DNA of 64,000 nucleotides, taken from positions 261,165 through 325,164 of the forward strand of contig JAGVXH010000004.1 of assembly GCA_018303845.1 (NCBI GenBank), given 5' to 3'. The first letter of the stretch is position 1. Each line of letters starts with the position of its first letter. Source of the DNA: Candidatus Pacearchaeota archaeon. GTDB lineage: Archaea > Nanobdellota > Nanobdellia > Pacearchaeales > GW2011-AR1. A program made the position numbers and the translations under genes. Shown here in pieces: positions 32,604 to 56,572 of the stretch. The notes beneath the pieces are model-generated. The model did not search any database. It was not told the DNA's origin and was given only the letters and a program-made list of their open reading frames with translations.

Positions 32604-35516
32604 TCACTCTAAATAAATAGAAGCCATTCCGGGTTTGGCTTTGTTCGCTCGTCCAGCAGGATCAATCTTTGTTGAATCATTCACCGCAAAAACCGCAACT
32701 TCTCTAATATCTAATTTCGAATCCCTAATATCTCGAAGAATTTTTTCTTTATCAATCTGACCAATCTCAAACGGCATCACATAAACATAAACTTTCTTTG
32801 TATCCGATTTTAAAATTCCTTTAATTCTCTCAACAATCTTTTCATTTAATCCTTCGCCACTTATCTTTTGCCCCTTATTCTTTATAACTTTCTCGTCAAC
32901 CTTAGGCCAACTGGCAACCGAAATCAATCCCTTTTCCCCAATCTTCTCCCACAATTCCTCCGCGACATGCGGGCAAATCGGAGCAATCAACTTCAAAAAT
33001 TTCAAGCCACTATCTTTAGAACATCCCTTCTCTAACTCCCCAAACAATTCCCGAATCTCAATCGTTGCCTTCCGATATTCAAAACTATCATAATAATTCC
33101 CAATATTTTTAATACAAAGATTCAGCTTAGAAACTAACTCCTCAGAATCTTTTCCGCCTACAAACGAATCATAAAACTCGAAGACTTTCTTAATGAAACG
33201 AGTAGCTCCAAGTATACCCTTTTCCGACCAATCAAAATCCTTATCCGGACTAGCAACCGAAATCAAAAACCATCGCGTTGCATCCACCCCGTATTTCTTC
33301 ATTGTCTCAATTGGCTCAACAACATTTCCAAGACTTTTCGACATCTTCCGCCCATCCTCAGCATGAAGCATCCCCTGATGAAACAACTTCAAAAACGGCT
33401 CGTCAAAATCAAGCGCACCAATATCCCTCAAAAACTTAACATAAAACCGAGAGTAAAGCAAATGCATACAAGCATGTTCAGCCCCGCCAATATAAACATC
33501 AACCGGGTTCCAATACTTCACCTTATCAAAATCAAAAATCTTTTTCGAATTTTTAGGGTCAGCATATCTCAAAAAATACCAACTCGAATTAACAAACGTA
33601 TCCATCGTGTCACTTTCTCGTCGACCTTTCCCACCACACTTCGGGCATTTACAATTCAACCACTCACTATTAGTCTCAAGCGGATTGCCCTTCCCAAACT
33701 TAACCTCCTTAGGTAAAACAACAGGCAAATCTTTTTCAGGGACTGGCACAGCACCACACCCATCACAATAAACAATCGGAATCGGCGTCCCCCAATATCT
33801 CTGACGACTAACTCCCCAATCTCGTAACTTAAAATTCACAACTCGCTTAGCATTACCTTTTCCCGCTAACCAATTCGTAATATCCGTCTTTGCTTCCAAG
33901 CTACTCATGCCACTAAACTGCTTAGACGCCATCAAAACACCATCATCGACAAACGCTTCTTTCCCGGTATACCTATTCTTAAAATCCAAAGGATCCTTAT
34001 TCGTAACAACCTGCCGAACAGAAATCCCATACTTCTTCGCAAACTCAAAATCCCTCTTGTCATGCGCCGGAACTCCCATAACCATACCACTCCCATAATC
34101 AGCCAAAACAAAATTTCCAATCCAAATCGGAACTCTCTCACCATTTGCCGGATTAACCGCATAACTCCCGCTAAAAACCCCTTCCTTCTCTCGCCTCTCA
34201 ATATCCTTCTCCGAAACAGAATTCATTTTCCTCAAATATTCATCAACAGCTAATCGCTGCTCATTCGTCACCAACTCATCTAACTTATCATGCCCAGCCG
34301 CAACAACCATAAACGTAACCCCAAAAATCGTATCCGGCCTAGTCGTAAAAACCTTCCAAACATTTCCAGATTCGCGCGCATTGGCGGAAATTTGTGGCTT
34401 AATCTTGGAGTCAATAAATTCTTTCACCTTCTTAACATCTCCATTATAAGGCACAACATCAATTCCCAAAGATTTAGCAGAGTCAACTCCATCCTCAGAG
34501 TGTTCAAAATAAACAACATTTTCTTTTTTCAAATTGAATTCCTCTAAAACTTTTTCATAATACTTAGGAGAACTCTTTTTCGGATTAAACTCCGTAGTAA
34601 AAATCTCATAATCCTTAACCTTCCCAAAAAACAAATCAAACTTACTTTTAGGAGCCATAGTCAAAACAATCTTCCTATTAGGCAAAGAATCCAAATAATT
34701 CTTCAACTCTTGATTAACGTTTCCTTTTTCATCAACCAAACAATGAACAGCATCAACTAAAATAACTTTATCTGTGCTAATCTGTGAAATCTGTGGCTCA
34801 CCCCCAGAAATTTCGAAAGAAATTTCCGTCCCTTCGCTTCGCCCAATCCAATTCCTCTGCATAGTCTTAGTCCTCTCAGGCCAGTCAATTCTTTCTAAAT
34901 CATTAAGCAACTCCTCAGCATATTCAGTCGTCCTAAAAAACCACTGCCGAAGCTTTCGAACCTCAACATCAGTATCCTCGTGTCTCCAGCATTTTCCTTC
35001 ATTGACCTGCTCATTCGCCAAAACCGTATCACACTTAGGACACCAATTTACCGAAGCTTCCTTTTGATAAGCCAACCCCTTTTCAAGCATCTTCAAAAAA
35101 ATCCACTGGTCCCACTTATAATATTCACTATTCGCAGTATTAACCATTCGTGACCAATCATAAGAAACACCAAGTGCTCTCTGTTGCTTTACAAAATTTT
35201 CAATCGCATCATTAGTATACTTCTCTGGGTCAACCCCAGCCTTAATCGCAGCATTTTCCGCAGGAAGCCCCAAAGCATCAAACCCCATAGGATGCAAAAC
35301 ATTGAAACCTTTCATAATCTTAAACCGAGCCAAAATATCTCCAATCGTATAATTCAAAGCATGTCCCATATGAAGCCCAGCCCCGGAAGGATAAGGAAAC
35401 ATTTCCAAAACATAAAATTTTTCTTTTCCAGAATCTTCACTAATCTCAAAAACCCTTTTCTCTTCCCAAGTCTTCTGCCACTTTTTCTCTATACTTACAA
35501 AATCAATTTCATCCAT
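32604..35516 (-). CDS. leuS: leucine--tRNA ligase, bacterial type, with an extra in-frame insert of about 143 aa
   Basis: PYPSGAGLHMGHALNY (HIGH), RNWIGRSEG, TTRPDTIFG, the CP1 editing region and KMSKS. 970 aa; the insert lies at 34368-34796 between RSEGTEISF and VFTTRPDT. Confidence 0.9.
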   Translation of the reverse strand: MDEIDFVSIEKKWQKTWEEKRVFEISEDSGKEKFYVLEMFPYPSGAGLHMGHALNYTIGDILARFKIMKGFNVLHPMGFDALGLPAENAAIKAGVDPEKYTNDAIENFVKQQRALGVSYDWSRMVNTANSEYYKWDQWIFLKMLEKGLAYQKEASVNWCPKCDTVLANEQVNEGKCWRHEDTDVEVRKLRQWFFRTTEYAEELLNDLERIDWPERTKTMQRNWIGRSEGTEISFEISGGEPQISQISTDKVILVDAVHCLVDEKGNVNQELKNYLDSLPNRKIVLTMAPKSKFDLFFGKVKDYEIFTTEFNPKKSSPKYYEKVLEEFNLKKENVVYFEHSEDGVDSAKSLGIDVVPYNGDVKKVKEFIDSKIKPQISANARESGNVWKVFTTRPDTIFGVTFMVVAAGHDKLDELVTNEQRLAVDEYLRKMNSVSEKDIERREKEGVFSGSYAVNPANGERVPIWIGNFVLADYGSGMVMGVPAHDKRDFEFAKKYGISVRQVVTNKDPLDFKNRYTGKEAFVDDGVLMASKQFSGMSSLEAKTDITNWLAGKGNAKRVVNFKLRDWGVSRQRYWGTPIPIVYCDGCGAVPVPEKDLPVVLPKEVKFGKGNPLETNSEWLNCKCPKCGGKGRRESDTMDTFVNSSWYFLRYADPKNSKKIFDFDKVKYWNPVDVYIGGAEHACMHLLYSRFYVKFLRDIGALDFDEPFLKLFHQGMLHAEDGRKMSKSLGNVVEPIETMKKYGVDATRWFLISVASPDKDFDWSEKGILGATRFIKKVFEFYDSFVGGKDSEELVSKLNLCIKNIGNYYDSFEYRKATIEIRELFGELEKGCSKDSGLKFLKLIAPICPHVAEELWEKIGEKGLISVASWPKVDEKVIKNKGQKISGEGLNEKIVERIKGILKSDTKKVYVYVMPFEIGQIDKEKILRDIRDSKLDIREVAVFAVNDSTKIDPAGRANKAKPGMASIYLE

Positions 35517-35546
35517 CTAACTCAATCTTTTCGCGATTTAAAAATT

Positions 35547-35798
35547 CTATTGTTCCTCAAGCATACTAGTCTTTCCTCTCGAAAAAGACATTTTCTTAGA
35601 GGTCCTATTAGTCTTCTCAAATTCAAGCCTTTTGCCAATGTCTTCGTCATAAGAAAAATCCCATCCAAAAGGATTCGAATTTACCAAATCATAAACTCCT
35701 TTCAAATCATATTTCTTGCCATGCCTCTCTCCACTTTTCAAAATTTCAAACTGCTTACCAACCCGATTAAAATAAATAATTTCCCTATATTCTCCCAT
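35547..35798 (-). CDS. hypothetical protein
   Basis: 83 aa ORF with no recognised motif. Confidence 0.35.
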   Translation of the reverse strand: MGEYREIIYFNRVGKQFEILKSGERHGKKYDLKGVYDLVNSNPFGWDFSYDEDIGKRLEFEKTNRTSKKMSFSRGKTSMLEEQ

Positions 35799-36013
35799 CT
35801 ACATCAACCTCCTTACAAATTCATTACGAAAAAAATATTGAGCAACCATCTTAAAATAAAACAGTCGCAGCTCTAGGCGAGTGCGACACTGGCGACCAGC
35901 AACAAAACCAAAACGAAGTTACCATTCGACATATTCATAATAATAAATAACAATCAAACTTTAAAAAACTTATCTTAAGAAAAATATATAACCTATGTTA
36001 CTCTTAAACTCTA

Positions 36014-36580
36014 ATGAAAATCCTAACAATCCTCGCCCATCCTTCAAAAGACTCCTTTAATCATGCTCTTTTACGGCAATATATCAAAGGGACAAAACAA
36101 AATCACCAAGTAAAAACAATATACTTAGGCGACCTAAAATTCGACCCAATCCTCCACGAAGGTTACAAAAAAATCCAAACGCTAGAACCCGACTTACTAG
36201 ACGCCCAAAAAAAAATTCTCTGGGCAGACAAAATCACAATCTTTACCCCAATCTGGTGGACAACCCCTCCGGCACTCTTTAAGGGATTTATCGAAAGAAC
36301 CCTCCACCCAACTTTTGCCTTTAATAATCCTAGTGGCAATAAATACGAAAAACTCCTAAAGGGAAGAAACGCAAGAATAATCGCAACAATGGACGCTCCA
36401 CTTTTATATTATAAATTTATAGTCGGCGACCCACTCTACAAGCAAATGAAAGGCACCCTCTCCTTTTGCGGAATATCTCCAATCCAAAAAACCTACATCT
36501 CTAGTCTAAAATTTAAAACAAACAAACAAACAAACGAAATACTAAAACAAATTTACAAAGTAGGTTTAAACGAAAAATAA
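36014..36580 (+). CDS. flavodoxin-like-fold NAD(P)H dehydrogenase (quinone) family protein
   Basis: MKILTILAHPSKDSFNHALL N-terminus and IFTPIWWTTPPALFKGFIER, typical of the Flavodoxin_2 / NQO-like family. Confidence 0.75.
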   Translation: MKILTILAHPSKDSFNHALLRQYIKGTKQNHQVKTIYLGDLKFDPILHEGYKKIQTLEPDLLDAQKKILWADKITIFTPIWWTTPPALFKGFIERTLHPTFAFNNPSGNKYEKLLKGRNARIIATMDAPLLYYKFIVGDPLYKQMKGTLSFCGISPIQKTYISSLKFKTNKQTNEILKQIYKVGLNEK

Positions 36581-36655
36581 AATCCGTGTAAATCTCGCGT
36601 AATCTCGTGACCAACAACACTATCTAATTTCTAATCTCTATCGCCTAAAATCTAG
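36578..36655. repeat. AATCCGTGT-type motif run followed by a TAATCTC-type run
   Basis: aaaatccgtgtaaatctcgcgtaatctcgtgacc at 36578-36612, and ctaatttctaatctctatcgcctaaaatctag at 36624-36655. Confidence 0.85.
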
Positions 36656-36797
36656 TCAAGCCTCTTCTCCAATTCCCTAACCCTATCTCTCAAATACATA
36701 GCCCTCTTCACCAATCCAACAACTCCGCCGCTTCTCGCATATTAGCCTCCAACTCAATAATCACATTAGCAACCTCAGCCTTAGGAATCCCCTTAAC
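36652..36797 (-). pseudogene. diverged duplicate of the uvrB 3' end (UVR-domain codons) with a frameshift
   Basis: The minus strand reads KGIPKAEVANVIIELEANMREAAELLD, then a frameshift, then KRAMYLRDRVRELEKRLD*. The intact UvrB has SIPKAEVKNVIIELEADMREAAEMLDFERAMYLRDRVRELNKRLEK*. Confidence 0.8.
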
Positions 36798-37211
36798 TCA
36801 CCTCTAATCAAAGCATTAACATTTTTTCTTCGAAAAAATCGTTAGACAAATTCCTCCAGAATTCATATAAGAAATTTTGGCCCCAACATTCCGCAATTAG
36901 GGGTCTGCCGAGCGGCCGTAAATGGTGATTCCCTCAAATTTCAATCTATAATAACTTGCCCAACCCCAAAACTTTTAAATCATGTTACCACTACAAAATG
37001 TATAAATTAAAAAATATCCACACCACATAGAGAGTCCCACCGATTACGATTAGTAATTCCCAAGAAATACGTGGATAAAGAGAAGAAATACCAAGTCAAA
37101 GATATTTCAAAAGAGTTTTATCTTAGACTTGTCTATATAAAATAAAATTTTTACAGCGGAATATTAGTATTTAGAATTTATATTACACATAACTTACAAA
37201 AAGGAGAAAAA

Positions 37212-37403
37212 ATGAATAAAAATCCAAAAAAATCCAATTTCTTAATTACCATAATTTCAATAATGGCAATAACAGTCATTACACTATTTTTAGCAGTCAT
37301 TGGAGGTAAAAAGAGAAAAAAAACTCTGGAAAGGATAGCAAATGACAAAACCGCCTCACTTGGTATCAGAATCCAAGCCAGCAACTTAAGCAAAAAAATG
37401 TAA
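37212..37403 (+). CDS. small single-TM protein
   Basis: 63 aa with AGGAG 7 nt upstream of the ATG. One hydrophobic helix and then a basic segment. Followed by a hairpin and a T-run. Confidence 0.45.
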   Translation: MNKNPKKSNFLITIISIMAITVITLFLAVIGGKKRKKTLERIANDKTASLGIRIQASNLSKKM

Positions 37404-37407
37404 CATA

Positions 37408-37441
37408 GAAAGAGCCCGCGCCCACAAGCAAAGGCTCTTTC
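37408..37441 (+). terminator. stem-loop followed by a T-run downstream of the small ORF
   Basis: gaaagagcc (37408-37416) pairs with ggctctttc (37433-37441), and tttttt follows within 10 nt. The role is inferred. Confidence 0.35.
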
Positions 37442-37547
37442 GACCCATTTTTTATTTCAAGAAAATTATATTCTTTAAGATACTATATTAAATTAGATAT
37501 TTTAACAGTCCTTTTTATTTCCCAAATCAACATATTCCACCAACCTC

Positions 37548-37584
37548 AAAAGTCCGTGCCAGTCCATGAAGTCCGTGGTTAAAA
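37548..37584. repeat. AGTCCGTGN x3 motif run directly behind the uvrB stop
   Basis: aaaagtccgtgccagtccatgaagtccgtggttaaaa. The uvrB stop codon is at 37585-37587. Confidence 0.85.
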
Positions 37585-40227
37585 TTATTTCTCTAATCTC
37601 TTGTTAAGTTCCCTAACCCTATCCCTCAAATACATCGCCCTCTCAAAATCAAGCATCTCCGCAGCCTCCCTCATATCAGCCTCCAACTCAATAATAACAT
37701 TCTTCACTTCCGCCTTAGGTATACTCTTAGTATCCTTAATCTCAATCTTCTTATCTCTTATAGGTTTTACAATCGTCATCGGCGTAATCCCATGTTTCAA
37801 ATTATAAGCAATCTGTTTCGCCCGCCTTCTCTCAGTTTCCTTAATCGCTTCCTTAATCGACCCAGTAACAACATCAGCATACAAAACAACTTTAGCCTCC
37901 GAATTCCGAGCAGCCCTCCCAATTATCTGAATCAAACTTCTCTTATCTCGCAAGAACCCCTCCTTATCAGCGTCAAGCACCCCAACAAATCCAATCTCCG
38001 GAATATCAATTCCCTCTCGCAATAAATTAATCCCAACAAGTACATCAAACTTACCCAACCGTAGCTCCCGCAAAATCTCCGTCCTCTCAAACGTATCAAT
38101 CTCCGAATGCATATACCGACACTTAACCCCATTCTCCCCCAAAAAATCCGTCAACTCCTCCGCCATCCTCTTAGTAAGAGTCGTAAGCATAACCCGAAAC
38201 CCCTTCTTAACAGCCTTATCAATCTCAACCAAACAATCCCTCACCTGCCCCCCATAAGATTCGCGTCCATTCGCGGCTAAAATCTCACCCAGCAACTCAG
38301 AAAACTCCATGTTCTCACCATTCCCCCTGTTTGTAAAATGTCCCCTATCTTTCAATACAACAGACTTAACACCAAGCGCCTTAGAATAAATTTTAACAGA
38401 TTCTCTAATGCTCTTAGCATCATCAGAAGATTCAATTATAACAATGTCAGAAACTCTATTTGAAATTTTTTTATCAATCTTAAAATCATAAAACTCCTCA
38501 GCCTCCCATTCCTCCGTCCCCTTGTTCTTACAAGCAGCCGCAACCAAAATCAACTTCTTAACCTTCCTCTTAGTTTGCCCAAGCCACCGAACCAAAAAAG
38601 CCGCACCGGCACTAGCCCCAACCAAAACAGAATTCTCATCAACATCAATCTTTTCAAACTCTGCCTTCCACTTCTCATAATCAGGCTTCCAATTCTCAGG
38701 CATCAAAGGAGTAAATACGGCAGCACCTTTTTTCTCAAGTTCTGACTTAATCCAAGGAAACCAATTTCTTTCATTCTGCTCAGGCAAGCTATACCTCTTC
38801 ATATTCTCTCTATCATTAGGATTGGCCCCATGCACAATAACAACATTCCCCAAGCCCCCAGCGCAGCTGAGCTCTTCCACCGAAGGTGAGCCCTTCCGAC
38901 CACGAGCCCTTCCAGCAGAGCTGAGCCCCTCCGTAGAACTAATAGGTCGAATTTCGACCTCGGGATCAATTAGTCCTGTAGGCCTAATTATCTGTTCTAC
39001 GACGTTAGAAGAGCAACGCTCTTCGTATTCCCCAGGCGTCGCACTCACAAAAACAGTCGAATTCCCCTTCATATACTTTTCAAACTCACCAAACTTCAAC
39101 GGCCGATTGTCATATGCCGAAGTCAACCGAAATCCATAATCAATCAAATTCTTCTTCCGTGCCCGGTCCCCATTAAACATACCACCAACCTGCGGAACCG
39201 ACCGATGACTCTCGTCAATAATAAAAAGAAAATCCCCCTTAGGAAAATAGTCAAGCAAACAAAAAGCCTGTTCACCCTCACGCCTTCCATCAAAATGCCG
39301 CGAATAATTTTCAATTCCCTTGCAAGTCCCAGTCTCCTTCAACATCTCCAAATCATAAAGCGTCCTCTGTTTCAACCGATGTTTAACCAACTCATCGCTA
39401 ATCTCAGCCAAGTCAATCTTCAACTGTTCCCGAATTTCCAAAGCAGCCTTATCAAAAACACTCTCTGGCACAACATAATTACGCGCAGGCCAAACATGAA
39501 AATACTTCATATCACTAAGCTTCTCACCAGTCACCTTATCAATCTCAAAAATTTTCTCAACCTCATCTCCAAAAAATTCAATCCTAATAATATTTTCCGA
39601 ATATCCAGGAATAAAATCAATAACATCTCCCTTAACTCTGAAGCGCCCTTGAATTAAATCCAAATCATTCCGTTCAAAAGCTCCACTAACCAACTTCCCA
39701 ATAAAATCCTTCCTTCCAATCTTCTCGCCAACTTCAACAGGAAACCCCATAGACCGAAACATTTTAGGGTCACTCATTCCATAAATACAACTAACACTCG
39801 CAACAACAATAACGTCACTTCGAGTCAAAAGACTAGCAACAGTCGCATGCCTCATCATCTCAATTCGCGGATTAATCGCCGAATCTTTCTCAATATACTG
39901 ATCCTTCGCAGGCAAATAACTCTCCGGCTGATAATAATCATAATACGAAATAAAATACTCAACCCGGTTCTCAGGAAAAAACTCCCGCATCTCCTCATAA
40001 AGCTGAGCCGCAAGTGTCTTATTATGGGCCAAAATCAAAGTAGGCCTCCCAACCTTCGCAATAACATTCGCCATCGTAAAAGTCTTCCCTGACCCAGTCA
40101 CACCCAAAAGAGTCTGCATATTCTTACCTTCTCGGATCCCATCAACTAAACCAGCAATCGCCACAGGCTGGTCCCCAGTAGGTTTAAACTTCGATTTCAA
40201 CTTAAACTTTCGCTTTTCAATTTCCAT
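37585..40227 (-). CDS. uvrB: excinuclease ABC subunit B with an in-frame alpha/beta serine-hydrolase domain insert of about 229 aa
   Basis: GVTGSGKTFTMA, YYDYYQPE, DESH, TTLTKRMAEELT, the helicase C motifs and a UVR domain. 880 aa versus the usual ~660; the insert lies at about 38254-38943. Confidence 0.9.
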   Translation of the reverse strand: MEIEKRKFKLKSKFKPTGDQPVAIAGLVDGIREGKNMQTLLGVTGSGKTFTMANVIAKVGRPTLILAHNKTLAAQLYEEMREFFPENRVEYFISYYDYYQPESYLPAKDQYIEKDSAINPRIEMMRHATVASLLTRSDVIVVASVSCIYGMSDPKMFRSMGFPVEVGEKIGRKDFIGKLVSGAFERNDLDLIQGRFRVKGDVIDFIPGYSENIIRIEFFGDEVEKIFEIDKVTGEKLSDMKYFHVWPARNYVVPESVFDKAALEIREQLKIDLAEISDELVKHRLKQRTLYDLEMLKETGTCKGIENYSRHFDGRREGEQAFCLLDYFPKGDFLFIIDESHRSVPQVGGMFNGDRARKKNLIDYGFRLTSAYDNRPLKFGEFEKYMKGNSTVFVSATPGEYEERCSSNVVEQIIRPTGLIDPEVEIRPISSTEGLSSAGRARGRKGSPSVEELSCAGGLGNVVIVHGANPNDRENMKRYSLPEQNERNWFPWIKSELEKKGAAVFTPLMPENWKPDYEKWKAEFEKIDVDENSVLVGASAGAAFLVRWLGQTKRKVKKLILVAAACKNKGTEEWEAEEFYDFKIDKKISNRVSDIVIIESSDDAKSIRESVKIYSKALGVKSVVLKDRGHFTNRGNGENMEFSELLGEILAANGRESYGGQVRDCLVEIDKAVKKGFRVMLTTLTKRMAEELTDFLGENGVKCRYMHSEIDTFERTEILRELRLGKFDVLVGINLLREGIDIPEIGFVGVLDADKEGFLRDKRSLIQIIGRAARNSEAKVVLYADVVTGSIKEAIKETERRRAKQIAYNLKHGITPMTIVKPIRDKKIEIKDTKSIPKAEVKNVIIELEADMREAAEMLDFERAMYLRDRVRELNKRLEK
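38869..38932. repeat. 4 copies of GAGC(C/T)C(T/C)TCC at 16-19 nt spacing, in frame at the N-terminal border of the UvrB insert
   Basis: Copies start at 38869, 38888, 38904 and 38923. On the minus strand they encode EGLSSAGRARGRKGSPSVEELS. Confidence 0.9.
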
Positions 40228-40270
40228 AAAAAAGCAAGAAATTCAGACTATAAGAAATTTTTGTTAACAA

Positions 40271-41908
40271 TCACTCCCGAATCTTCTTGCCCCGAAGCAA
40301 CCTCTGATAACCAATCGCAAACCGATGTGCCTCATCCCGAATCTCAATCAACAATTTTAAAGCCCCACTCTTTTTATCTAGCCTAACCTCTCTTCCCAAA
40401 CCCCCATGCCCCCATACCCCCAAATCCCCATCTTGCCGTTTTGGCAAGATTACAGTCTCTTCGGCCTTAGCCAAACCAATAACCTCAATTCCCAATTTCA
40501 ATTCCTCCAAAACCCCAACCGCAACCCCAAGTTGCCCCTTCCCTCCATCAACAACAATCAAATCCGGGGCCTCCATTTTTTCATCCCGAGCTTCCGAACT
40601 CCCAATCCCCCGAACTTCCGCCAAGCGATGATATCGTCGCGAGATAACTTCCCTCATCGCAGCATAATCGTCATTAACATCCCCGCCACGAATTCGAAAC
40701 TTCCGATAATTACTTTTATCCGCAACACCATCCCTAAACTGAACCATCGAAGCAACAACATCAGTCCCACTCAAATGCGAAACATCAAAACACTCAATCA
40801 CTCTAGGCAACTTAATCAATCCCAACTTCTCCTTCAACTCCTTAACCTTATCAACATTCCCAAAAACCGCCAAATCAACATTCTTCTTCACAAGCTCCAA
40901 TAGCTTAACTTTCTCTCCCATCTTTGGCACAACAACTTTTCCGCCAAGTCTCTCAATAAATTCCTTCAATCCAGAATCAACATCTTCGGGCAACACAACC
41001 TCTTTTGGACAATCATAGTCCGAATAAAACTGAACCAAAAATTCCTCCAAAAAATTAGGACTCCAATCAAACTCAAAAAACTGCTTATTCTCTAGTATAC
41101 CTCTTCTAGCATTAAACAAAATCAAGTATACCTTATCTCCAGAAATAATCCAATTAATAAAATCCTCATCATACTTCTTATCCCTCTCCATCTTCTGCTT
41201 CTCACCCAAATCCTTAATCGCCCTAATCTGCTCTCTCAAAATAAGCGCTCTCTCAAAATCTTTGTCAATAGAAAATCCTTTCATTCTCTTCGACAAAATC
41301 TCAACAACAGCCTTAGTCTTGCCCTTCAAAACCATTTCGGCATTCTTAACATTCTCCAAATAATCCGTCTTGCTAATCTTCCCCTCGCACGGTCCAGAAC
41401 AAAGTCCAATCTGAAACCTCATACAAACTTTTTTAGGCAACTTTACGCAAGTTCGAATCTTAAAAATTTTCCTAAGCGCATGCAAAACATAATCTCTCGA
41501 CATCCCAGAAACAAACGGCCCATAAAATCTCGAAGCTCTTTCTAATTTCGAATCTCTAATCTCTAATCTCTTTCGTGCAATCAAAAGTCGCGGGAACATT
41601 TCTCCCGTGACTTGCACGAACGCATACCTCTTGCTATCCTTCAAGTCAATATTATATTTAGGCTTATACTTCTTAATCAAATTATTCTCCAATATCAAGG
41701 CCTCAACCTCAGAATCCGTAACAACAAATTCAACAGAATCAATATGTGAAACCAAAACATTAGTCTTAACAGACTCGTGCTCTTTAGCAAAATAACTCTT
41801 AACTCGGTTTACCAAACTCTTCGCTTTTCCAACATAAATAACTTTATCCTTAGAATCCTTAAACAAATAACATCCAGGATTTTTAGGAATTTCCTTTAGA
41901 TTAATCAT
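40271..41908 (-). CDS. uvrC: excinuclease ABC subunit C
   Basis: GIY-YIG N-terminus ([24 protein letters not shown]), a UVR-like segment, the endonuclease domain (ECFDVSH) and C-terminal IRDEAHRFAI. Contains two repeat-derived in-frame inserts. Confidence 0.9.
   Translation of the reverse strand: MINLKEIPKNPGCYLFKDSKDKVIYVGKAKSLVNRVKSYFAKEHESVKTNVLVSHIDSVEFVVTDSEVEALILENNLIKKYKPKYNIDLKDSKRYAFVQVTGEMFPRLLIARKRLEIRDSKLERASRFYGPFVSGMSRDYVLHALRKIFKIRTCVKLPKKVCMRFQIGLCSGPCEGKISKTDYLENVKNAEMVLKGKTKAVVEILSKRMKGFSIDKDFERALILREQIRAIKDLGEKQKMERDKKYDEDFINWIISGDKVYLILFNARRGILENKQFFEFDWSPNFLEEFLVQFYSDYDCPKEVVLPEDVDSGLKEFIERLGGKVVVPKMGEKVKLLELVKKNVDLAVFGNVDKVKELKEKLGLIKLPRVIECFDVSHLSGTDVVASMVQFRDGVADKSNYRKFRIRGGDVNDDYAAMREVISRRYHRLAEVRGIGSSEARDEKMEAPDLIVVDGGKGQLGVAVGVLEELKLGIEVIGLAKAEETVILPKRQDGDLGVWGHGGLGREVRLDKKSGALKLLIEIRDEAHRFAIGYQRLLRGKKIRE
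40395..40450. repeat. degenerate (CCCCCAWA)4 run followed by an 8-bp hairpin, in frame in uvrC
   Basis: cccaaacccccatgcccccatacccccaaatcccc at 40395-40429. Stem atcttgcc (40430-40437) pairs with ggcaagat (40443-40450). Encodes ILPKRQDGDLGVWGHGGLG. Confidence 0.9.
41541..41570. repeat. TAATCTC-type run, in frame in uvrC
   Basis: tctaatttcgaatctctaatctctaatctc encodes RLEIRDSKLE. This is inserted between the conserved FPRL..R and YFGPF segments. Confidence 0.85.
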
Positions 41909-42015
41909 GTCCCCACCTTACGCATAGCAATTTAGAAACGTATTTCGAATTCATAATAATGATATGAAGAATATCAAGTTTAAAACATTAATCCAATAAA
42001 TTAATTTTAATATTT

Positions 42016-42597
42016 TTATTTTAAATATACTTTTCTTTTCATCCAAAAAAAACTTGCAGTTAATCCGGCAAGGAACAATATGCTACCAGCCCAAGAGGTT
42101 GAATTGATGGATAAGTTTGCAATCGAATTACCTGTTATGTGAGAGGATAACAAAAACATTCCCCCAATAAGTCCGACAGTAGCCACAACACCACTATATT
42201 TTGTCATCCCAGATACAGCTTGTTTTTCTCCATATTTACCATCACTTGCTCTATAGAGAAGACCTTGCAAAGAGTTAATTTTCTCCTGTTCGTCCCCAGA
42301 TAGAAGTCGATGTGGGCATGTATCATATATGTCAACTTTCGTATGTCCAATTTCGTCCATCCGGTCTAAAACTTTATTGGCGAGATTATAAAAATGATCA
42401 GCCTTCTCAGCGGATAATTCTTTTTTTGCTTTCTCCGCTCGCGATAAAATATAATATATAGCTGAAAAAGTTCTAGGGTCCTGAGAGTTCGGATTATCTA
42501 GCGTTTCCTCCAAAAAACGAATATTTTTTTTCACATCACACGGCTTTTCATTTATGAATTTTCCCGCACCTCCAATACACCCCTTTTTTCTCCCCAT
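42016..42597 (-). CDS. hypothetical protein with two C-terminal TM helices
   Basis: 193 aa ORF lying between intact uvrC and a duplicated uvrC 5' fragment. Composition is discordant with neighbouring genes. Confidence 0.45.
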   Translation of the reverse strand: MGRKKGCIGGAGKFINEKPCDVKKNIRFLEETLDNPNSQDPRTFSAIYYILSRAEKAKKELSAEKADHFYNLANKVLDRMDEIGHTKVDIYDTCPHRLLSGDEQEKINSLQGLLYRASDGKYGEKQAVSGMTKYSGVVATVGLIGGMFLLSSHITGNSIANLSINSTSWAGSILFLAGLTASFFWMKRKVYLK

Positions 42598-42634
42598 ATT
42601 ATGCTAAATAGAATATGCTTTAAATAAATATCTG

Positions 42635-42754
42635 AAAATAACTCTTAACCCGGTTTACCAAAACCTTCGCCTTCCCAACATAAATAATTTTGCCCTTAGA
42701 ATCCTTAAACAAATAACATCCAGGATTTTTAGGAGCATGCCCTAAATCTATCAT
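42635..42754 (-). pseudogene. diverged duplicate of the uvrC 5' end (first ~40 codons)
   Basis: The minus strand reads [40 protein letters not shown], then QIFI*. The intact UvrC has [40 protein letters not shown]. Confidence 0.85.
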
Positions 42755-42868
42755 AACACAGCAAAGACAATACACGTTAAATACTTTTCATAATCCATAA
42801 ATTTCCAATACTCCAATTCAAATCAGACCCTTAATAAGATTTATAAAAAACAATAAACAATAAACAAT

Positions 42869-43144
42869 ATGAAAAACAATAAACTTTTCTTAATAACACT
42901 AGCAATTATATTAACCTTAGCAGTTATCACAACCCTAGCCTTATTTTGTTTCAAATCACAGTCACTGGACGAAAACTCACAAACAGTCCCAGTAGCAATT
43001 GCAAATCCAGCCGCAACATTTTGCATCGAACAAGGCGGAGAGTCAAAAATCAAAACAAACGAAGACGGCTCCCAATCTGGACTATGTATAATCGACGGCC
43101 AAGAATATGACGACTGGGAATATTTCAGAAACAACCAAAAATAA
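42869..43144 (+). CDS. DUF333-like small secreted/lipoprotein-type protein
   Basis: N-terminal hydrophobic signal, then ANPAATFCIEQGG...GLCIIDGQEYDDWEYFR, the DUF333 pattern as I recall it. Confidence 0.65.
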   Translation: MKNNKLFLITLAIILTLAVITTLALFCFKSQSLDENSQTVPVAIANPAATFCIEQGGESKIKTNEDGSQSGLCIIDGQEYDDWEYFRNNQK

Positions 43145-43159
43145 ATATTTCAATTTCCT

Positions 43160-43198
43160 TTACATAACCTTCCCCAAAAACTTCCAACTCCAACTCCT
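43160..43198 (-). pseudogene. short diverged duplicate of the uvrA 3' end
   Basis: The minus strand reads RSWSWKFLGKVM* followed by AGGAAA. The intact uvrA ends KSWTGKFLGKVM* followed by GGAAAG, 137 nt upstream. Confidence 0.5.
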
Positions 43199-43253
43199 CT
43201 CTAACCCTCACAGCCTCCCTCTCCCTCTCATTCCCACAATCTTGTCTCGCCAT

Positions 43254-43287
43254 AAAATCCGTGTAATCCGTGTAATCTGTGGCTAAA
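43254..43287. repeat. AATCCGTGT x2 plus AATCTGTGGCTAAA directly behind the uvrA stop
   Basis: aaaatccgtgtaatccgtgtaatctgtggctaaa. The uvrA stop is at 43297-43299. Confidence 0.9.
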
Positions 43288-43296
43288 TTTCTTTCC

Positions 43297-46092
43297 TTAC
43301 ATAACCTTCCCTAAAAATTTCCCCGTCCATGATTTCTTATTCAAGACCACCTCTTCCGGAGTCCCAACTGCCACCACAGTCCCCCCACCTTCCCCGCCCT
43401 CGGGCCCCAAATCAATCACATAATCCGCAGTCTTAATCACATCCAAATTATGCTCAATCACAACCATCGTATTCCCCTTCTCAACCAAACTATCAATCAC
43501 TCGAAGCAACTTCTTAACATCATGAAAATGAAGCCCAGTCGTAGGTTCATCCAAAATATACAAAGTCCGACCAGTTCCCCTTTTCGCCAACTCTTTAGTT
43601 AACTTAATCCTCTGACTCTCTCCACCAGAAAGCGTCGTAGAACTTTGCCCGAGCTTAATATATTCCAGCCCCACCTTTTTCAAAGTCTCAATCTTCCCAT
43701 GAATAGAAGAAACATTTTCAAAAATTACCAATGCCTCTTCTACGCTCATATCCAAAACATCCGCAATATTTTTTCCCTTAAATAAAATATCCAAAGTGTC
43801 CCGATTATACCGCTTTCCCTTACATTCCTCACATTCAACATAAACGTCCGGCAAAAAATGCATCTCAATTTTAATCGTCCCATCGCCCTTACATCTTTCA
43901 CAACGACCTCCACTGACATTAAACGAAAACCTTCCAGGCCCATATCCCCGAATCTTCGCCTCTTTAGTCGAAGCAAACAACTTCCTAATTTCATCAAATA
44001 CTCCAACATAAGTAGCAGGGTTCGACCGTGGCGTCTTCCCGATCGGCGACTGATTAATCACAATCACCTTATCAATTTTCTCATCCAAAGAAATTTCCTT
44101 ATGCTTCCCAACCAAAATCTTCGATCCCTTATTCAACTTCTTCTCCATTCCCTTATACAAAATCTCATTCATTAGCGTAGACTTTCCAGAACCCGAAACT
44201 CCAGTTATACAATTTAAAATTCCAATCGGAATATTAACATCAATATTTTTCAAATTATTTTCCGAACATCCTTTCAGCCGAATATACTTATTACTCGCTC
44301 GCCTTCGAAGTGGCGTCTCAACCTTCAACTCACCAGAAAGATATTTCCCAGTCAAACTCTTTTCATTCTTCTCAATTTCCTTCGGAGTTCCAGCCGCAAC
44401 AATTTCGCCCCCATGAATCCCGGCACCAGGCCCAACATCAACAACATAGTCCGCAGCCCGAATCGTATCCTCGTCATGCTCAACAACAATCAAACTGTTT
44501 CCCAAATCCCGAAGCCGATGCAGTGTCTCAATTAACTTAGCATTATCCCTTTGATGCAAACCAATCGACGGCTCATCTAAAACATACATCACTCCCATCA
44601 GGTTCGCCCCAATCTGCGTAGCAAGCCGAATTCTCTGCGCCTCACCCCCACTCAAACTCCCAGCCGTTCTAGACAAATTCAAATATCCAAGTCCAACATT
44701 ATTCAAAAAACTAAGCCGACTTCGAATCTCCTTCAAAATCAAATTCGCAATCTCCATCTCTTTATCAGAGAGCTTCAAGTTCTCAAAAAACTCCGCACAC
44801 TTCCCAATCGACATCTCAGTCACATTCACAATATTCTTATCCAATATTTTAATTGACAAAATCTTTTCTTTCAGTCGCTTCCCTTCACAACTAGGACAAG
44901 TCTTAGACCTCTGAAACTTCTCAAGCATCCGTCTTCGATAATCACTATCAGTTGACTTATACAATCTCTCCGACTGCGGAATCAAACCCTCCCATCCTTC
45001 TTCCATATTCATATTCGCTCCGCTAGACCACTTCGCAAAAATCGGCCTCTTGTCGCCATACATCAAAATCTCATATTGCTTCTCACTCATGTTACAAACC
45101 GGCTTCATAATATTAAACCCAAAACTTTTCCCTACCGCACCCAACTGCTGAATCCTCCAAGAATTATCCATCTTCCCATAAAGCTTAATCGCCCCGTCCG
45201 CTATCGTCTCATCCTCGTCAGGAATAATCAACTCAGGATCAAACTCAGTCTTAACGCCAAGCCCATGACATTCCTCACACGCGCCAAAAGGACTATTGAA
45301 CGAAAACATTCTTGGCTGCAACTCTTCAAAAGCAAGCCCACACTCAGGACAAGCCATGACAGTAGAATAAATATGCAACTTCCCCTTCTCATCAAGAACT
45401 TCAATCATCCCACCTTCGCTAACCTTCGCCGCATTCTCAATCGCCTCACTAAGTCGTCCAGAGTCAGTCACATTAACTCTATCAACAACAATAGCAATAT
45501 CATGTTTCACATATCTCCCCATCTTAATCGTCTCATCAGTCCGATAAATCACACCATCAACTCGAACCCGCGCCCAACCATCCCGATTCAAACCCAAAAT
45601 AACCTGCTCATGCGTCCCCTTCTTGTCAACAACAACAGGCGCCAAAATAGTAACATTCCCCTCAACCTCATTCCCAATCCGGTCACTAATCCTTTGAGGA
45701 GAACTCGACTCAATTTTACAACCATGCTCAGGGCAATAAGCAGTCCCAACTCTAGCAAAAAGCAATCTTAAATAATCATAAATCTCAGTCACAGTCCCAA
45801 CAGTTGACCGCGGATTTTTACTCGTCGTCTTCTGCTCAATAGAAATAGCAGGGCTAAGCCCCTCGATAGAATCGACATCAGGCTTATTCATAACGCCCAA
45901 AAACTGCCGAGCATAAGCCGAAAGCGATTCAACATAACGCCTCTGCCCTTCAGCATAAAGCGTATCAAATGCGAGAGTAGACTTCCCCGAACCAGACAGC
46001 CCAGTAATAACTACAAACTTCTCTCGTGGCAAATCAATGCTCACATTTTTCAAATTGTGTTCTCGTGCTCCCTTAATTCGTATCTGTTTCAT
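43297..46092 (-). CDS. uvrA: excinuclease ABC subunit A
   Basis: Two ABC modules (GLSGSGKSTLAFDT and GVSGSGKSTL), LSGGE signatures and Zn-finger Cys pairs. Start placed at MKQIRIKGAREHNLKN; the tracked ORF extends to 46122. Confidence 0.9.
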   Translation of the reverse strand: MKQIRIKGAREHNLKNVSIDLPREKFVVITGLSGSGKSTLAFDTLYAEGQRRYVESLSAYARQFLGVMNKPDVDSIEGLSPAISIEQKTTSKNPRSTVGTVTEIYDYLRLLFARVGTAYCPEHGCKIESSSPQRISDRIGNEVEGNVTILAPVVVDKKGTHEQVILGLNRDGWARVRVDGVIYRTDETIKMGRYVKHDIAIVVDRVNVTDSGRLSEAIENAAKVSEGGMIEVLDEKGKLHIYSTVMACPECGLAFEELQPRMFSFNSPFGACEECHGLGVKTEFDPELIIPDEDETIADGAIKLYGKMDNSWRIQQLGAVGKSFGFNIMKPVCNMSEKQYEILMYGDKRPIFAKWSSGANMNMEEGWEGLIPQSERLYKSTDSDYRRRMLEKFQRSKTCPSCEGKRLKEKILSIKILDKNIVNVTEMSIGKCAEFFENLKLSDKEMEIANLILKEIRSRLSFLNNVGLGYLNLSRTAGSLSGGEAQRIRLATQIGANLMGVMYVLDEPSIGLHQRDNAKLIETLHRLRDLGNSLIVVEHDEDTIRAADYVVDVGPGAGIHGGEIVAAGTPKEIEKNEKSLTGKYLSGELKVETPLRRRASNKYIRLKGCSENNLKNIDVNIPIGILNCITGVSGSGKSTLMNEILYKGMEKKLNKGSKILVGKHKEISLDEKIDKVIVINQSPIGKTPRSNPATYVGVFDEIRKLFASTKEAKIRGYGPGRFSFNVSGGRCERCKGDGTIKIEMHFLPDVYVECEECKGKRYNRDTLDILFKGKNIADVLDMSVEEALVIFENVSSIHGKIETLKKVGLEYIKLGQSSTTLSGGESQRIKLTKELAKRGTGRTLYILDEPTTGLHFHDVKKLLRVIDSLVEKGNTMVVIEHNLDVIKTADYVIDLGPEGGEGGGTVVAVGTPEEVVLNKKSWTGKFLGKVM

Positions 46093-46243
46093 GGTGTCTC
46101 CCAAAGAATAAACAATATCCAAAGAGAAATACGACCTTTAAATTTGTTCCGTTTACAATATTATCAACAACCTAAAGGGTTAAAAATCAAAATTTCCCCA
46201 AACAATAAGGTGATCAGCCACAGACTGTTTCTGTAAATTCAAA

Positions 46244-47317
46244 ATGGCAGATCCAAGAACAATCGAGTTAGCGAAACTTGTAGTCGATCACGCACTAAAA
46301 GTCAAGAAAGGAGAAAATGTAATCCTATCAGGCGGAGTCGAAGCCGAACCTTTCCTTTTGGCACTCTACAAAGAAGTCATCCTAAGAGGCGCCCACCCAG
46401 ACTTCCGAATCGCAATCAGAGAAACCGCACCATTCTTCTTCAAACACGCAAAGCCTCATCAAATAGAAAAATTCCCAGACACCTTCGACTACCAAGTAAA
46501 GAAAGCCCAAAAATACGTAGGTATACTAACAGATACCAATACCCGTAGTCTAGCCAACTGCGACCCCAAAAAAATAGCAGCCAGACAAAAAATCGTCAAA
46601 CCAATCTCAACCTACATCTGCAACGGCAAACCTCATATTCAAAGAAGTTCAGTCGCCTACCCCTGCCAAGCCCTAGCACAAGAAGCCGAAATGTCGCTAA
46701 CAGATTATGAAAACTTTGTCTACGGAGCCTGCCTCCAAGACTGGAAAACAATAGGAAGAAGAATGAACCAAATTTTAAAAGTATTTCAAAAAGGAAAATC
46801 AGTCCATCTAATAGGGCGCGGTGTAGACCTAAAATTTCAAATTCATGGCAAATTAGCAAAGTCAGACCTCGACGGAGAAAATATCCCAATGGGAGAAATA
46901 TTTATGGCGCCTGTAAGAGAATCTCTAAACGGTTGGATAAAATTTGACTACCCAGCAATCGAGTCGAGTAAAGAAGTAACCGACATCTACCTAAAATTTG
47001 AAAATGGAAAAGTAATAGAATCTTCAGCCAGTAAAAACGAAGACTTCCTAAAAGAAATGTTATCAGCAGACGAAAATGCATCTTATGTAGGAGAGTTTGG
47101 AATAGGGATGAACCCGAAGATAAAAAAGTTCACAAAAAATCTTTTATTCGACGAGAAAATGGGAGGAACAATCCATCTAGCACTAGGAGCAGCCTACAAA
47201 GCAAACGGCGGTGGCAACGACTCAATAATCCACTGGGACATCGTAAAAGACATGAGTCATGCAAAAATAATTCTCGACGGGAAAATAGTCCAAAACAAAG
47301 CCAAGTGGTTAATCTAA
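46244..47317 (+). CDS. M29-family aminopeptidase (AmpS/PepS-like)
   Basis: LAKLVVDHALKVKKGENVIL......PFLLALYKEVILRGAHP and C-terminal EFGIGMNP...GGTIHLALG....HWD. Confidence 0.8.
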   Translation: MADPRTIELAKLVVDHALKVKKGENVILSGGVEAEPFLLALYKEVILRGAHPDFRIAIRETAPFFFKHAKPHQIEKFPDTFDYQVKKAQKYVGILTDTNTRSLANCDPKKIAARQKIVKPISTYICNGKPHIQRSSVAYPCQALAQEAEMSLTDYENFVYGACLQDWKTIGRRMNQILKVFQKGKSVHLIGRGVDLKFQIHGKLAKSDLDGENIPMGEIFMAPVRESLNGWIKFDYPAIESSKEVTDIYLKFENGKVIESSASKNEDFLKEMLSADENASYVGEFGIGMNPKIKKFTKNLLFDEKMGGTIHLALGAAYKANGGGNDSIIHWDIVKDMSHAKIILDGKIVQNKAKWLI

Positions 47318-56451: not shown

Positions 56452-56572
56452 AAAATCCGTGTAATCCGTGTAATCTGCGGCTAAATAATTAACAAAATCC
56501 AAAAACAAAATCTGCGTAATCTGCGTAATCTGCGGCTAAATAATTAACAATCAATCCAAAAAAAATCCGTGC
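56452..56572. repeat. two tandem ~44-nt units (AATCYGYGT x3 + GGCTAAATAATTAACAA) plus a partial third, behind the helicase gene
   Basis: 56452-56495 is aaaatccgtgtaatccgtgtaatctgcggctaaataattaacaa. 56507-56550 is aaaatctgcgtaatctgcgtaatctgcggctaaataattaacaa. 56560-56572 is aaaaatccgtgcc. Confidence 0.95.

Follow-up and report, generated by a model that had tools for sequence, protein, structure and literature searches.

Duplicated gene ends beside small insertions at the uvr operon of a Pacearchaeota archaeon

In the DNA-repair operon of a Candidatus Pacearchaeota archaeon, uvrA, uvrB and uvrC each have a second, diverged copy of one gene end, separated from the intact gene by inserted DNA. 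These gene-end duplications are real. In each pair one copy runs without a break into the working gene, and the other is a truncated, broken and untranslated relic beside the old neighbor. The best reading, to which we assign a probability of about 0.5, is homology-anchored capture (single-crossover type) of DNA from related lineages; as part of that explanation, the three pairs would be the scars of three separate insertions. If this is true, genes are gained by ordinary recombination and not by a dedicated mobile-element enzyme.

Structure of the three duplicated gene ends

The window analyzed here is a 64,000-nt stretch of contig JAGVXH010000004.1, and all positions refer to it. The host is a DPANN archaeon with a tiny genome (a 1.09-Mb, ~80% complete MAG). 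The operon order is uvrA-uvrC-uvrB, all on the minus strand, with the three insertions at operon boundaries. Intact uvrB (37585..40227, 880 aa; Pfam and orthologues in relatives) has a serine-hydrolase domain nested at residues ~431-656 (Pfam), and its orthologues in relatives occur with and without this domain. The last ~160 nt of the gene (37580-37741, minus strand, from local alignment) are repeated as a 3' relic at 36646..36809 on the same strand, where a 2-nt insertion causes a frameshift and the relic ends at its own stop. Self-BLASTN aligned 37598-37729 with 36662-36795 (79.1% over 134 nt, one 2-nt indel, E 7e-26), and local alignment stretched the pair to ~160 nt at 78-79% identity. 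The insert between the two copies (36810..37579), defined by sequence comparison, carries a 9-mer-type array directly after the uvrB stop, a ~50-nt element common to other genomes (36864-36920), and a gene for a 63-aa single-pass membrane protein (37212-37403), which public assemblies also call on the plus strand. The region upstream of this gene (36959-37163) is 82% identical to a second copy on another contig (C6:183496-183703). The whole insert is missing in the relative G003, in which the uvrB stop lies 3 nt from a flavodoxin gene. The uvrB relic still adjoins that flavodoxin-like gene (36014..36580, plus strand; Pfam Flavodoxin_2), as uvrB itself does in G003; by this synteny, the gene is the ancestral convergent neighbor of uvrB.

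The uvrC gene (40271..41908, minus strand; Pfam GIY-YIG and UvrC_RNaseH, orthologues in relatives) is duplicated at its 5' end: by alignment, its first 124 nt (41785-41908) correspond to a relic at 42631..42754, also on the minus strand, found by BLASTN and by a GIY-YIG match on the fragment. The relic retains the ATG and codes for the initial 41 residues of the GIY-YIG domain before it reads into the insert and ends (44-aa ORF 42620-42754). Self-BLASTN gave 92% identity over 100 nt (41789-41888 vs. 42635-42734, E 1e-35); counted from the ATG, the identity drops to ~85% over 120-124 nt, since the opening 20 nt match at just 55%. The intervening insert (41909..42630, minus strand), recognized by its lack of homologues and its skews, contains ORF193 (42016-42597), which has C-terminal membrane segments and a TATA-like box at its own 5' junction. 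Its GC skew is -0.14 to -0.24 as compared to about -0.45 in the neighbors. ORF193 gave no Pfam, NCBIfam or PHROG match, found only itself among 5.8 billion proteins, and had no DNA-level match when 48 other genomes of the genus were searched. Between the uvrC and uvrA relics, on the strand opposite to the uvr genes, lies a DUF333 gene (42869..43144, plus strand, 91 aa; Pfam PF03891, E 2e-14; public gene calls agree), which did not turn up at the uvr loci of the relatives examined.

The intact uvrA (43297..46122, minus strand; Pfam UvrA_DNA-bind, UvrA_inter and ABC_tran) is a 941-aa ORF, the start of which is placed 10 codons later by gene callers. Behind its stop is an insert (43219..43286, minus strand), recognized from the sequence and from the adjacency of uvrA and uvrC in the relative G021, that consists of a 9-mer array and ~35 nt. 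The array (43256-43281) reads TTAGCC CACAGATTA CACGGATTA CACGGATTT, and copies of it are present elsewhere in the genome. The 3' relic that follows (43147..43218, minus strand) includes the stop. The self-BLASTN match of 43287-43322 with 43147-43185 (87% over 39 nt, 3 gaps, E 1e-4) is weak alone; the relic extends to ~72 nt, reads SWSWKFLGKVM before its stop as compared to SWTGKFLGKVM in the real gene, is 81% identical over 47 nt to the uvrA-end relic of G003, and, compared flank to flank, scores beyond the 99th percentile set by 400 random sites.

Self-comparison by BLASTN, which the initial annotation had proposed as a check, found the uvrB and uvrC copies highly significant; the uvrA copy, with the further evidence, is short but real. 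The annotated details stood as well: a frameshifted uvrB copy ~790 nt past the real stop, a uvrC copy of ~85% identity with its start codon intact, a compositionally discordant ORF at 42016-42597 (strand skews unlike those of its neighbors), a uvrA copy with its stop, now longer, and an element between that copy and the real stop, namely the 9-mer array. The genome is metagenome-assembled and the uvrA copy is short, and a mis-assembly of mixed strains, or likeness from conserved peptides alone, could be suspected. We consider such an artefact extremely improbable: besides the E-values of the uvrC and uvrB pairs, similar structures occur in relatives from other studies, and the 10.3-kb uvr region was found from end to end at 100% identity in three contigs of other samples (JGI, ENA), 100% identical over 8.8 kb in a fourth contig that ends inside the region, and at 98.7-99.98% in three further public contigs. 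The matching contigs come from independent assemblies of several samples, made with two pipelines (up to 206 kb read, 965 kb recorded), and the identical layout means that it is not an assembly error.

Gene-end repeats in relatives and across the genome

Comparison of synteny in related genomes, also suggested at the outset, revealed sites without the insertions: in G003 uvrB lies directly beside the flavodoxin gene, and in G021 uvrA lies directly beside uvrC. Two other relatives, SI039 and G011, have different fillings between uvrA and uvrC. G003 carries its own repeats, one of 465 nt at the uvrB 5' end around a three-gene cargo and one of 159 nt at the uvrA 3' end around a Bro-N gene, and in G022 a further shared gene bears a repeat of its own. 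The inserted ORFs at the uvr locus are lineage-specific. On the side against capture, neither a donor genome nor an empty-site strain nor an excised circle was encountered. The empty sites, the lineage-specific ORFs and the relics beside old neighbors support the core of the initial proposal, that DNA was inserted beside gene ends with the terminus doubled and the gene left whole.

A search for further terminus duplications across the genome was rewarded. The automated census of the 1.09-Mb genome gave 32 local two-copy direct-repeat pairs, 14 of which have one copy on a gene end. Aligned by hand, the 5' repeats take in a TATA-like box and the ATG, and most of the 3' repeats cover the stop. 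Repeat lengths range from 37 to 465 nt with no common core, and young pairs are 93-99% identical. Inserts measure 0.07-3.7 kb, from ~70-170 nt of non-coding DNA up to 3.7-kb gene sets, and the cargo across the repeat loci includes a HEPN and nucleotidyltransferase pair, NYN, TrmB, DUF362 and small membrane proteins. One hairpin element of ~140 nt is flanked at three unrelated genes by repeats specific to each site (106, 115 and 60 nt), and at one of these genes five relatives show an empty site with the repeat in single copy. The pattern had been described as one of the uvr genes; the three cases instead belong to a genome-wide and genus-wide pattern with about a dozen other gene ends, within which the uvr operon seems to be a hot spot.

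The initial annotation likened the layout to integrative elements at tRNA genes. Such elements, which carry the terminus of a tRNA gene or gene 3' end in attP, likewise leave the gene intact with a relic terminus at the far junction, but they are kilobases long and use an integrase, tyrosine or serine, together with a specific att core, none of which is found here. Integrase elements could still have entered the uvr gene ends with a replacement terminus and later lost the integrase and most of their DNA: an intact gene, cargo and a relic terminus are what such elements leave, five tyrosine recombinase genes are present in the genome on other contigs (C4, C6, C9), and the cargo at uvrA of G003 is a Bro-N phage-type gene. 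This explanation, already weakened by the tests run, is improbable. No integrase, transposase or tRNA was found in or near the uvr inserts, and the inserts gave no recombinase, tRNA or Rfam match; no integrase is in or near any insert, the inserts are only 0.07-3.7 kb, and the repeats share no core. A tRNA gene plays no part at the uvr sites or at the eight further repeat-bearing loci that were scanned, the only tRNA found (locus L149) does not overlap the repeats of that locus, and the 140-nt non-coding element has the same layout. Target-site duplications of transposons and MITEs also place direct repeats of the target around an insert, and the hairpin element is MITE-like, but those duplications are short and of fixed length per transposase, whereas repeat lengths here span 37 to 465 nt, and neither DDE_Tnp_1 nor TnpB, the two transposase families looked for, was found in the genome.

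Substitution spectra of live copies and relics

The differences between live and relic uvrB fall on codon positions as 11/2/19. This spectrum fits that of functional orthologue pairs (p 0.18) and not that of a copy decaying in place (p 0.026; second-position deficit p 0.003), the latter being computed on the assumption that third positions evolve neutrally. Four older pairs pooled gave 34/19/75, with an orthologue fit of p 0.73 and rejection of in-place decay at p 6e-4. In the older pairs, to which uvrB belongs, the relics are as near to orthologues as the live copies, with 27 derived states on relics and 25 on live copies (plus 3 more on the live copy in another count); quartet counts on 124-135-nt segments resolved no tree. 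In contrast, uvrC and one other young pair (C5_122) have an even spectrum (uniform p 0.45), for which the orthologue spectrum is rejected (p 0.002). A test for a foreign allele, as envisaged initially, therefore divides the cases: by its third-codon-position spectrum and equal nearness to orthologues the uvrB relic behaves like a separate functional allele, whereas the uvrC relic has the look of a copy that was near-identical and decayed afterwards.

The same division bears on whether a single replacement could account for two of the pairs. A donor block of ORF193, uvrC, uvrB and the small membrane gene (42630 down to 36810) might have replaced the resident interior through two out-of-register joints, leaving the resident uvrC start and uvrB end as relics. 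The two relics do bracket exactly this 5.8-kb block, both with their old outer neighbors. But the pairs are unlike (uvrC 89-92% with an even spectrum, uvrB 78% with a third-position spectrum), two illegitimate joints between homologous molecules would be needed, and the uvrA relic and 12 other gene-end cases are left unexplained. We regard this replacement as unlikely, if slightly less so than decayed integrase elements.

Proposed mechanism and comparison to known systems

In homology-anchored capture, DNA of a related lineage would enter the cell with a homologous gene end and whatever adjoined that gene in the donor, and host homologous recombination would integrate it through this single homologous stretch. 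The likely routes would be Campbell-type single-crossover of a circularized fragment, or one-sided homologous invasion with an illegitimate second junction; both would duplicate the homologous stretch around the cargo. The gene would stay intact only if the duplication extends to its start, promoter included, or to its stop, and since the genome has almost no intergenic DNA, we propose that only gene-sparing events survive. At uvrB the two copies would be alleles from lineages that differ at the species level; at uvrC the incoming copy may have been nearly identical, or copied in place, with decay of the relic since. Comparable events are known in E. coli, where DNA with homology to one gene end was integrated mostly by single-crossover of a re-circularized molecule that duplicated 109-950 bp of the gene end (PMC3240628, which cites related work on S. 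pneumoniae, A. baylyi and P. stutzeri). Such Campbell-type insertion-duplication and homology-facilitated illegitimate recombination share with the present cases homology at one place, host recombination and no element-encoded enzyme. Those were laboratory events of very low frequency, whereas here the process is read from scars only, and classical homology-facilitated illegitimate recombination usually deletes recipient DNA where we see duplication.

The pattern also matches a class described earlier, insertion with long target duplication (Nobusato et al. 2000, Gene 259:99; Furuta, Abe and Kobayashi 2010, PMC2853133). In both, direct repeats of more than 30 bp surround genes (46 to ~420 bp there, 37-465 nt here), a related genome has the repeat once at its empty site, transposases and integrases are lacking, and repeats often lie across a start or stop codon. 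That class is known for restriction-modification genes in bacteria, mostly naturally competent ones, and no archaeal case passed the screen (PMC2853133). Here the host is archaeal, no restriction-modification system was among the cargo tested, inserts begin at ~70-170 nt of non-coding DNA and reach 3.7-kb gene sets, at least 14 gene-end cases occur in 1.09 Mb, and older pairs look like different alleles and not like copies of one target.

The main competitor, possible though less probable than capture, is that insertion itself copied 40-465 bp of the target in place, perhaps through the filling-in of breaks with a wide stagger, or through a template switch in replication that returns upstream; the copies would be identical at first, the relic would decay, and older live genes would later be overwritten by homologous recombination with other lineages. 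The older pairs stand against it: their spectrum is orthologue-like and, measured against orthologues, the relics are no more distant than the live copies, so that a second, unrelated event would be needed at each, soon after insertion. No enzyme for such staggered cuts is evident, and Ku was not found in the 80% complete genome. Other observations favor it over capture. The even spectrum of uvrC and C5_122 is what copying in place would give, and young pairs are nearly identical. The hairpin element, with its empty site in five relatives, is more simply explained by local target duplication at insertion; under capture, donors must have carried it at each of three genes. Recombination through a ~79%-identical anchor would be inefficient, and the published account of the bacterial class describes repeats often spanning start or stop codons (PMC2853133). 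That a live gene can later be overwritten is shown by uvrA, a mosaic made up of SI039-like parts and G003-like parts (Fisher p 1.6e-4); its product is 85% identical to UvrA of both G003 and SI039. The mosaic speaks for capture as well, in that it points to recombination between lineages at the uvr locus.

Duplicated ends of the uvr genes and the DNA between them

In the window, which belongs to contig C2 of a genome of 1.09 Mb in 10 contigs (80% complete), the uvr genes lie on the minus strand in the order uvrA (46122..43297), a 1.39-kb spacer, uvrC (41908..40271) and uvrB (40227..37585), followed by a spacer of 1.0 kb, a flavodoxin-like gene convergent to uvrB (36014-36580) and then leuS. BLASTN of 35001-47000 against the whole window gave three matches: the start of uvrC (41789-41888 and 42635-42734; 92% identity over 100 nt, E = 1e-35), the end of uvrB (37598-37729 and 36662-36795; 79% over 134 nt, E = 7e-26) and the end of uvrA (43287-43322 and 43147-43185; 87% over 39 nt, E = 1e-4). 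This self-comparison bore out the duplicated gene ends reported in the initial annotation. The end joined to the working gene is called here the live copy, and the broken second copy beyond the insert the relic. In local alignments the uvrB pair reaches ~160 nt, to 5 nt past the stop codon, and the frame of the far copy is broken by a 2-nt insertion. The uvrC repeat is 124 nt long; its relic retains the ATG and 41 GIY-YIG codons before running into foreign sequence, and is only 55% identical to the live copy over the first 20 nt and 89% identical over nt 21-124. The uvrA copy had been described as ~40 nt including the stop; the stop is present, and the length is revised to ~72 nt (43147-43218). 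It encodes SWSWKFLGKVM-stop versus SWTGKFLGKVM-stop in the live copy, it resembles the equivalent uvrA relic of a relative (G003), and flank to flank it scores above the 99th percentile of 400 randomly chosen sites. All three repeats are thus longer than 30 bp. A simple tandem duplication was rejected, since the DNA between the copies is unlike the DNA upstream of the first copy, and so was a single event duplicating the uvrA/uvrC junction, which predicts the uvrC relic followed by the uvrA relic, the opposite of the order found. Small ORFs of this sort, the 44-aa GIY-YIG fragment among them, are pseudogene scars that do not merit annotation as genes.

The inserts at the uvr genes measure 0.07-0.8 kb and contain an ORFan membrane protein, a 63-aa membrane protein, a 9-mer array and DUF333. 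The gene for the 63-aa protein lies in the uvrB insert on the strand opposite to the uvr genes, and the region upstream of it has a second copy at C6:183496-183703. In the insert upstream of uvrC, ORF193 (42016-42597, minus strand) has discordant strand skews, and profile and protein searches returned neither a family match nor any homologue for it. A ~50-nt stretch of the uvrB insert (36864-36920) is 80-95% identical to sequence in at least eight other genomes of the genus and also matches C1:17848-17897.

The same layout was present in independent assemblies. The exact ORF193 protein was found on 18 contigs by protein search, and 23 contigs carrying ORF193 were read by contig look-up. The 10.3-kb region was compared with seven loci fetched from ENA and JGI samples: three carry all of it at 100% identity, one carries 8.8 kb at 100% with the contig ending inside the region, two are >99.9% identical, and one is 98.7% identical with every difference in the last ~700 nt of its contig. 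Look-ups with the flavodoxin and DUF333 proteins gave the same layout, the sole variant being a 45-nt in-frame uvrB deletion (39389-39433 in JGI 3300025051; the rest of the 9-kb contig is identical). Across the three exact-protein look-ups in public assemblies all contigs had this layout, with no empty-site strain or other arrangement. We concluded that the uvr layout is not an artefact and that the population is clonal apart from the deletion variant.

Gene-end duplications across the genome and genus

The initial annotation had likened the uvr inserts to integrative elements at tRNA genes. This analogy failed: domain, tRNA and Rfam scans detected no integrase, transposase, tRNA or Rfam family in the inserts; the five tyrosine recombinases (PF00589) of the genome are on contigs C4, C6 and C9, with none on C2; no tRNA lies in the window or overlaps the repeats at eight other loci scanned; and the repeats are site-specific, mutually unrelated and variable in length, with no common att core. 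A site-specific integrative element using a tyrosine or serine recombinase was therefore rejected. A DNA transposon or MITE was likewise rejected, because the duplications vary from 37 to 465 nt instead of being short and of fixed length, and searches of the 80%-complete genome for two transposase families, DDE_Tnp_1 and TnpB, gave no hit; Ku was also not found there.

Whole-genome self-comparison gave many short local direct repeats. We took a census of those present in two copies only, 35-500 nt long, at least 75% identical, 80-4000 nt apart and not within one ORF, which yielded 32 pairs in the 1.09-Mb genome. In 14 of these one copy spans an ORF end, the ORF being 100 aa or longer (a crude longest-ORF set; part of the 14 were hand-checked), with 5' and 3' ends about equally represented, so that further terminus duplications, which the initial annotation had suggested looking for, do occur elsewhere in the genome. 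Hand alignments showed that the 5' repeats begin 13-35 nt before the ATG, contain a TATA-like box and extend 45-150 nt into the gene, that most 3' repeats include the stop and extend 0-16 nt past it, and that the boundaries are sharp. Cargo at the non-uvr sites includes a HEPN and nucleotidyltransferase pair, NYN, TrmB, DUF362 and small membrane proteins. Applied to 200 kb, this census counted three cases in another genome of the genus and none in a genome of another family. Three genomes carry a 141-148-nt duplication of the 3' end of one orthologous gene (C4:29440-29840 here; L130 on G053:C15; L139 on G056:C30), and the DNA between the copies differs, being 117 nt here and the ~140-nt hairpin element described below in the other two; this suggests either that the duplication is old and shared and its filling has been replaced, or that it arose more than once.

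Synteny supported the proposal that DNA was inserted near gene ends. In G003 the uvrB stop is 3 nt from the flavodoxin gene, with neither spacer nor relic, and in G021 uvrA and uvrC overlap; the compared relatives are only 70-80% identical (all at least 20% diverged), and these empty sites are thus not strain-level comparisons. The uvrA-uvrC spacer of the relative SI039_bin30 (SI039) holds two unrelated ORFs and no relics, and G011, G015 and others have spacers of different lengths. A search of the genus (48 other genomes) with the insert DNA matched nothing but short repeat elements and orthologous gene ends. G003 has cases of its own, a uvrB 5' repeat of 465 nt (92% identical) with radical-SAM, GNAT and amidohydrolase cargo and a uvrA 3' repeat of 159 nt (82% identical) flanking a Bro-N gene, and in G022 a repeat is present at a different shared gene. 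Throughout the genus the uvr operon appears to be a hot spot for insertions.

A non-coding element of ~140 nt (C5:24565-24710, C2:46349-46485, C6:61318-61455 and C2:45190-45364) is found at three unrelated genes, each time enclosed by repeats particular to that site (106, 115 and 60 nt long). At one of these sites both repeat copies map to a single gene end in five relatives, which represents an empty site. The element consists of a long hairpin with a 16-bp stem (RNA fold z -4.6) and a 50-nt tail that is 96-100% conserved across species; it has no Rfam match, and it occurs in 26 of 48 genomes of the genus in up to 11 copies, in some of them between the 141-148-nt repeats.

Two alleles or two copies of one target

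The uvrB live copy, its relic and the G003 and SI039 sequences all lie at about the same distance from one another (75-80% identity), the relic being only 4-5 differences more distant from the rest than these are among themselves. Live copy and relic differ at 32 sites, distributed over codon positions as 11/2/19. This spectrum fits functional orthologue pairs (p = 0.18) and departs from that of an immediately dead copy (p = 0.026; second-position deficit p = 0.003, with an expectation that assumes neutral third positions). Four older pairs pooled (34/19/75) fit the orthologue spectrum (p = 0.73) and reject decay in place (p = 6e-4). In seven other pairs the relics are as near to the orthologues as the live copies are, and derived states number 27 on relics versus 25 on live copies, to which the C5 hairpin site adds 3 on the live copy. 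The codon spectra, orthologue distances and derived-state split point to older pairs, including uvrB, that probably diverged for the most part while both copies were still functional alleles in separate lineages, and whose relics would be young as pseudogenes. A phylogeny of relic against live copy, proposed earlier for recognizing a foreign allele, took the form of three- and four-taxon site counts over 124-135 nt and gave no resolution, because this genome, G003 and SI039 are about equidistant. uvrA is a mosaic: its first 1200 nt share 179 sites with SI039 versus 96 with G003, and the remainder 168 versus 169 (Fisher p = 1.6e-4, breakpoint chosen post hoc), and recombination between these lineages therefore occurs at this locus.

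Homology-anchored capture of DNA from related lineages is the simplest single account, to which we assign a probability of roughly one half. DNA of a related lineage would integrate through one stretch of homology, a gene end, and bring cargo alongside, either by single-crossover integration of a circularised fragment or by one-sided invasion in which the second joint is illegitimate. In E. coli, DNA of this kind mostly gave gene-end duplications of 109-950 bp around the insert (PMC3240628). A working gene would remain only if the duplicated stretch reached the promoter and start, or the stop; since the intergenic spacers are a few bases long, only events reaching a terminus would leave one, which would account for the restriction to termini. 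Either copy may be the newcomer: the relics stand beside the old neighbours, but the mirror image, a donor fragment anchored on the neighbour side, fits equally well. Neither a donor nor a circular form was seen.

For uvrC and one further young pair the picture differs from that of the older pairs: the spectrum is even, fitting a uniform distribution (p = 0.45) and rejecting the orthologue spectrum (p = 0.002), as would be expected of a copy nearly identical at the start that then decayed. The uvrC copies are 89-92% identical to each other versus at most 85% to orthologues, and in the young pairs the two copies are likewise closest to each other. This even spectrum and the hairpin-element sites favour a true local duplication of the target at insertion, which is also the published description of the class in bacteria (PMC2853133); for the older pairs, however, it would require later overwriting of the live gene, and as the general explanation we regard it as rather doubtful. 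Both processes may be at work.

Descriptively, the finding falls within "insertion with long target duplication" (Kobayashi group): the repeats at the uvr sites exceed 30 bp, related genomes have the empty site (G003 and G021; five relatives for the hairpin case), the insert is <20 kb and has no other mobile-element gene, and the only feature of the class that is missing is restriction-modification cargo. That class takes the repeats as copies of one local target, which holds for uvrC and not for uvrB, whereas in Campbell-type or one-sided capture the copies are donor and recipient alleles diverged under coding constraint, which holds for uvrB and the pooled older pairs and not for uvrC. No archaeal case passed the screen of Furuta et al. 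(PMC2853133), and in the literature searched we found no description of such a pattern in DPANN or other archaea. The class would thus extend from bacterial restriction-modification genes to archaea and arbitrary cargo, with evidence that at least some such duplications are really two alleles. Homology-anchored capture would explain in concrete, testable terms how archaeal genomes that are very small and poor in mobile-element genes can nevertheless acquire accessory genes, by host recombination at gene boundaries that leaves datable relic termini; as fossil alleles, the relics could be used for tracing donors and timing transfers between uncultivated lineages. A further extension is speculative and in our view improbable: DPANN gene cassettes might spread without any element-encoded enzyme, a cassette between two gene-end copies looping out into a small circle, on which one of the copies serves as an address tag, and then re-entering any related genome through a single crossover at the tagged gene end. 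Such a cycle would be a major way of gaining genes and, acting inside linkers, would also have placed whole enzymes in frame within UvrB and LeuRS.

Small repeats and a domain nested in UvrB

Arrays of 9-mers (CACGGATTA type, often after TTAGCC) follow stop codons at 43254-43288, 56452-56541, 37540-37575 and 36585-36620 of the window. All 38 arrays in the genome are oriented as the upstream gene. That such arrays are generally flanked by duplications was rejected; the uvrA site tops the 38, and the other high scores come from adjacent arrays. A second hairpin element of ~110 nt (C3:36483-36591; L145 2984-3092) directly follows a stop codon and is multicopy in all five relatives searched, at 70-86% identity. 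At the start of a 1743-aa gene (C6:183100-183200), which also has an upstream 5' relic copy, the 20-mer GGCTCACTCTTCGAGTGGAT is repeated three times in tandem.

The interdomain linker of UvrB contains, nested in frame, a serine-hydrolase domain (Pfam Ser_hydrolase; window 38257-38948, residues ~431-656). SI039 UvrB shares it at only 44-54% identity, versus 72-97% in the flanks, and UvrB of G003, G021, G015 and G011 is without it. G003 encodes a free-standing homologue on its contig C5 (58% aa identity), and its leuS (L015 10784-11833) has a related sequence (49% and 23% aa identity) between two LeuRS-homologous segments. The N-terminal border of the nested domain is encoded by a GGCTCA-rich repeat like GGCTCACTCTTCGAGTGGAT (window ~38850-38930), and the C-terminal border by an in-frame 9-mer array (TTAGCC GCGAATGGA CGCGAATCT).
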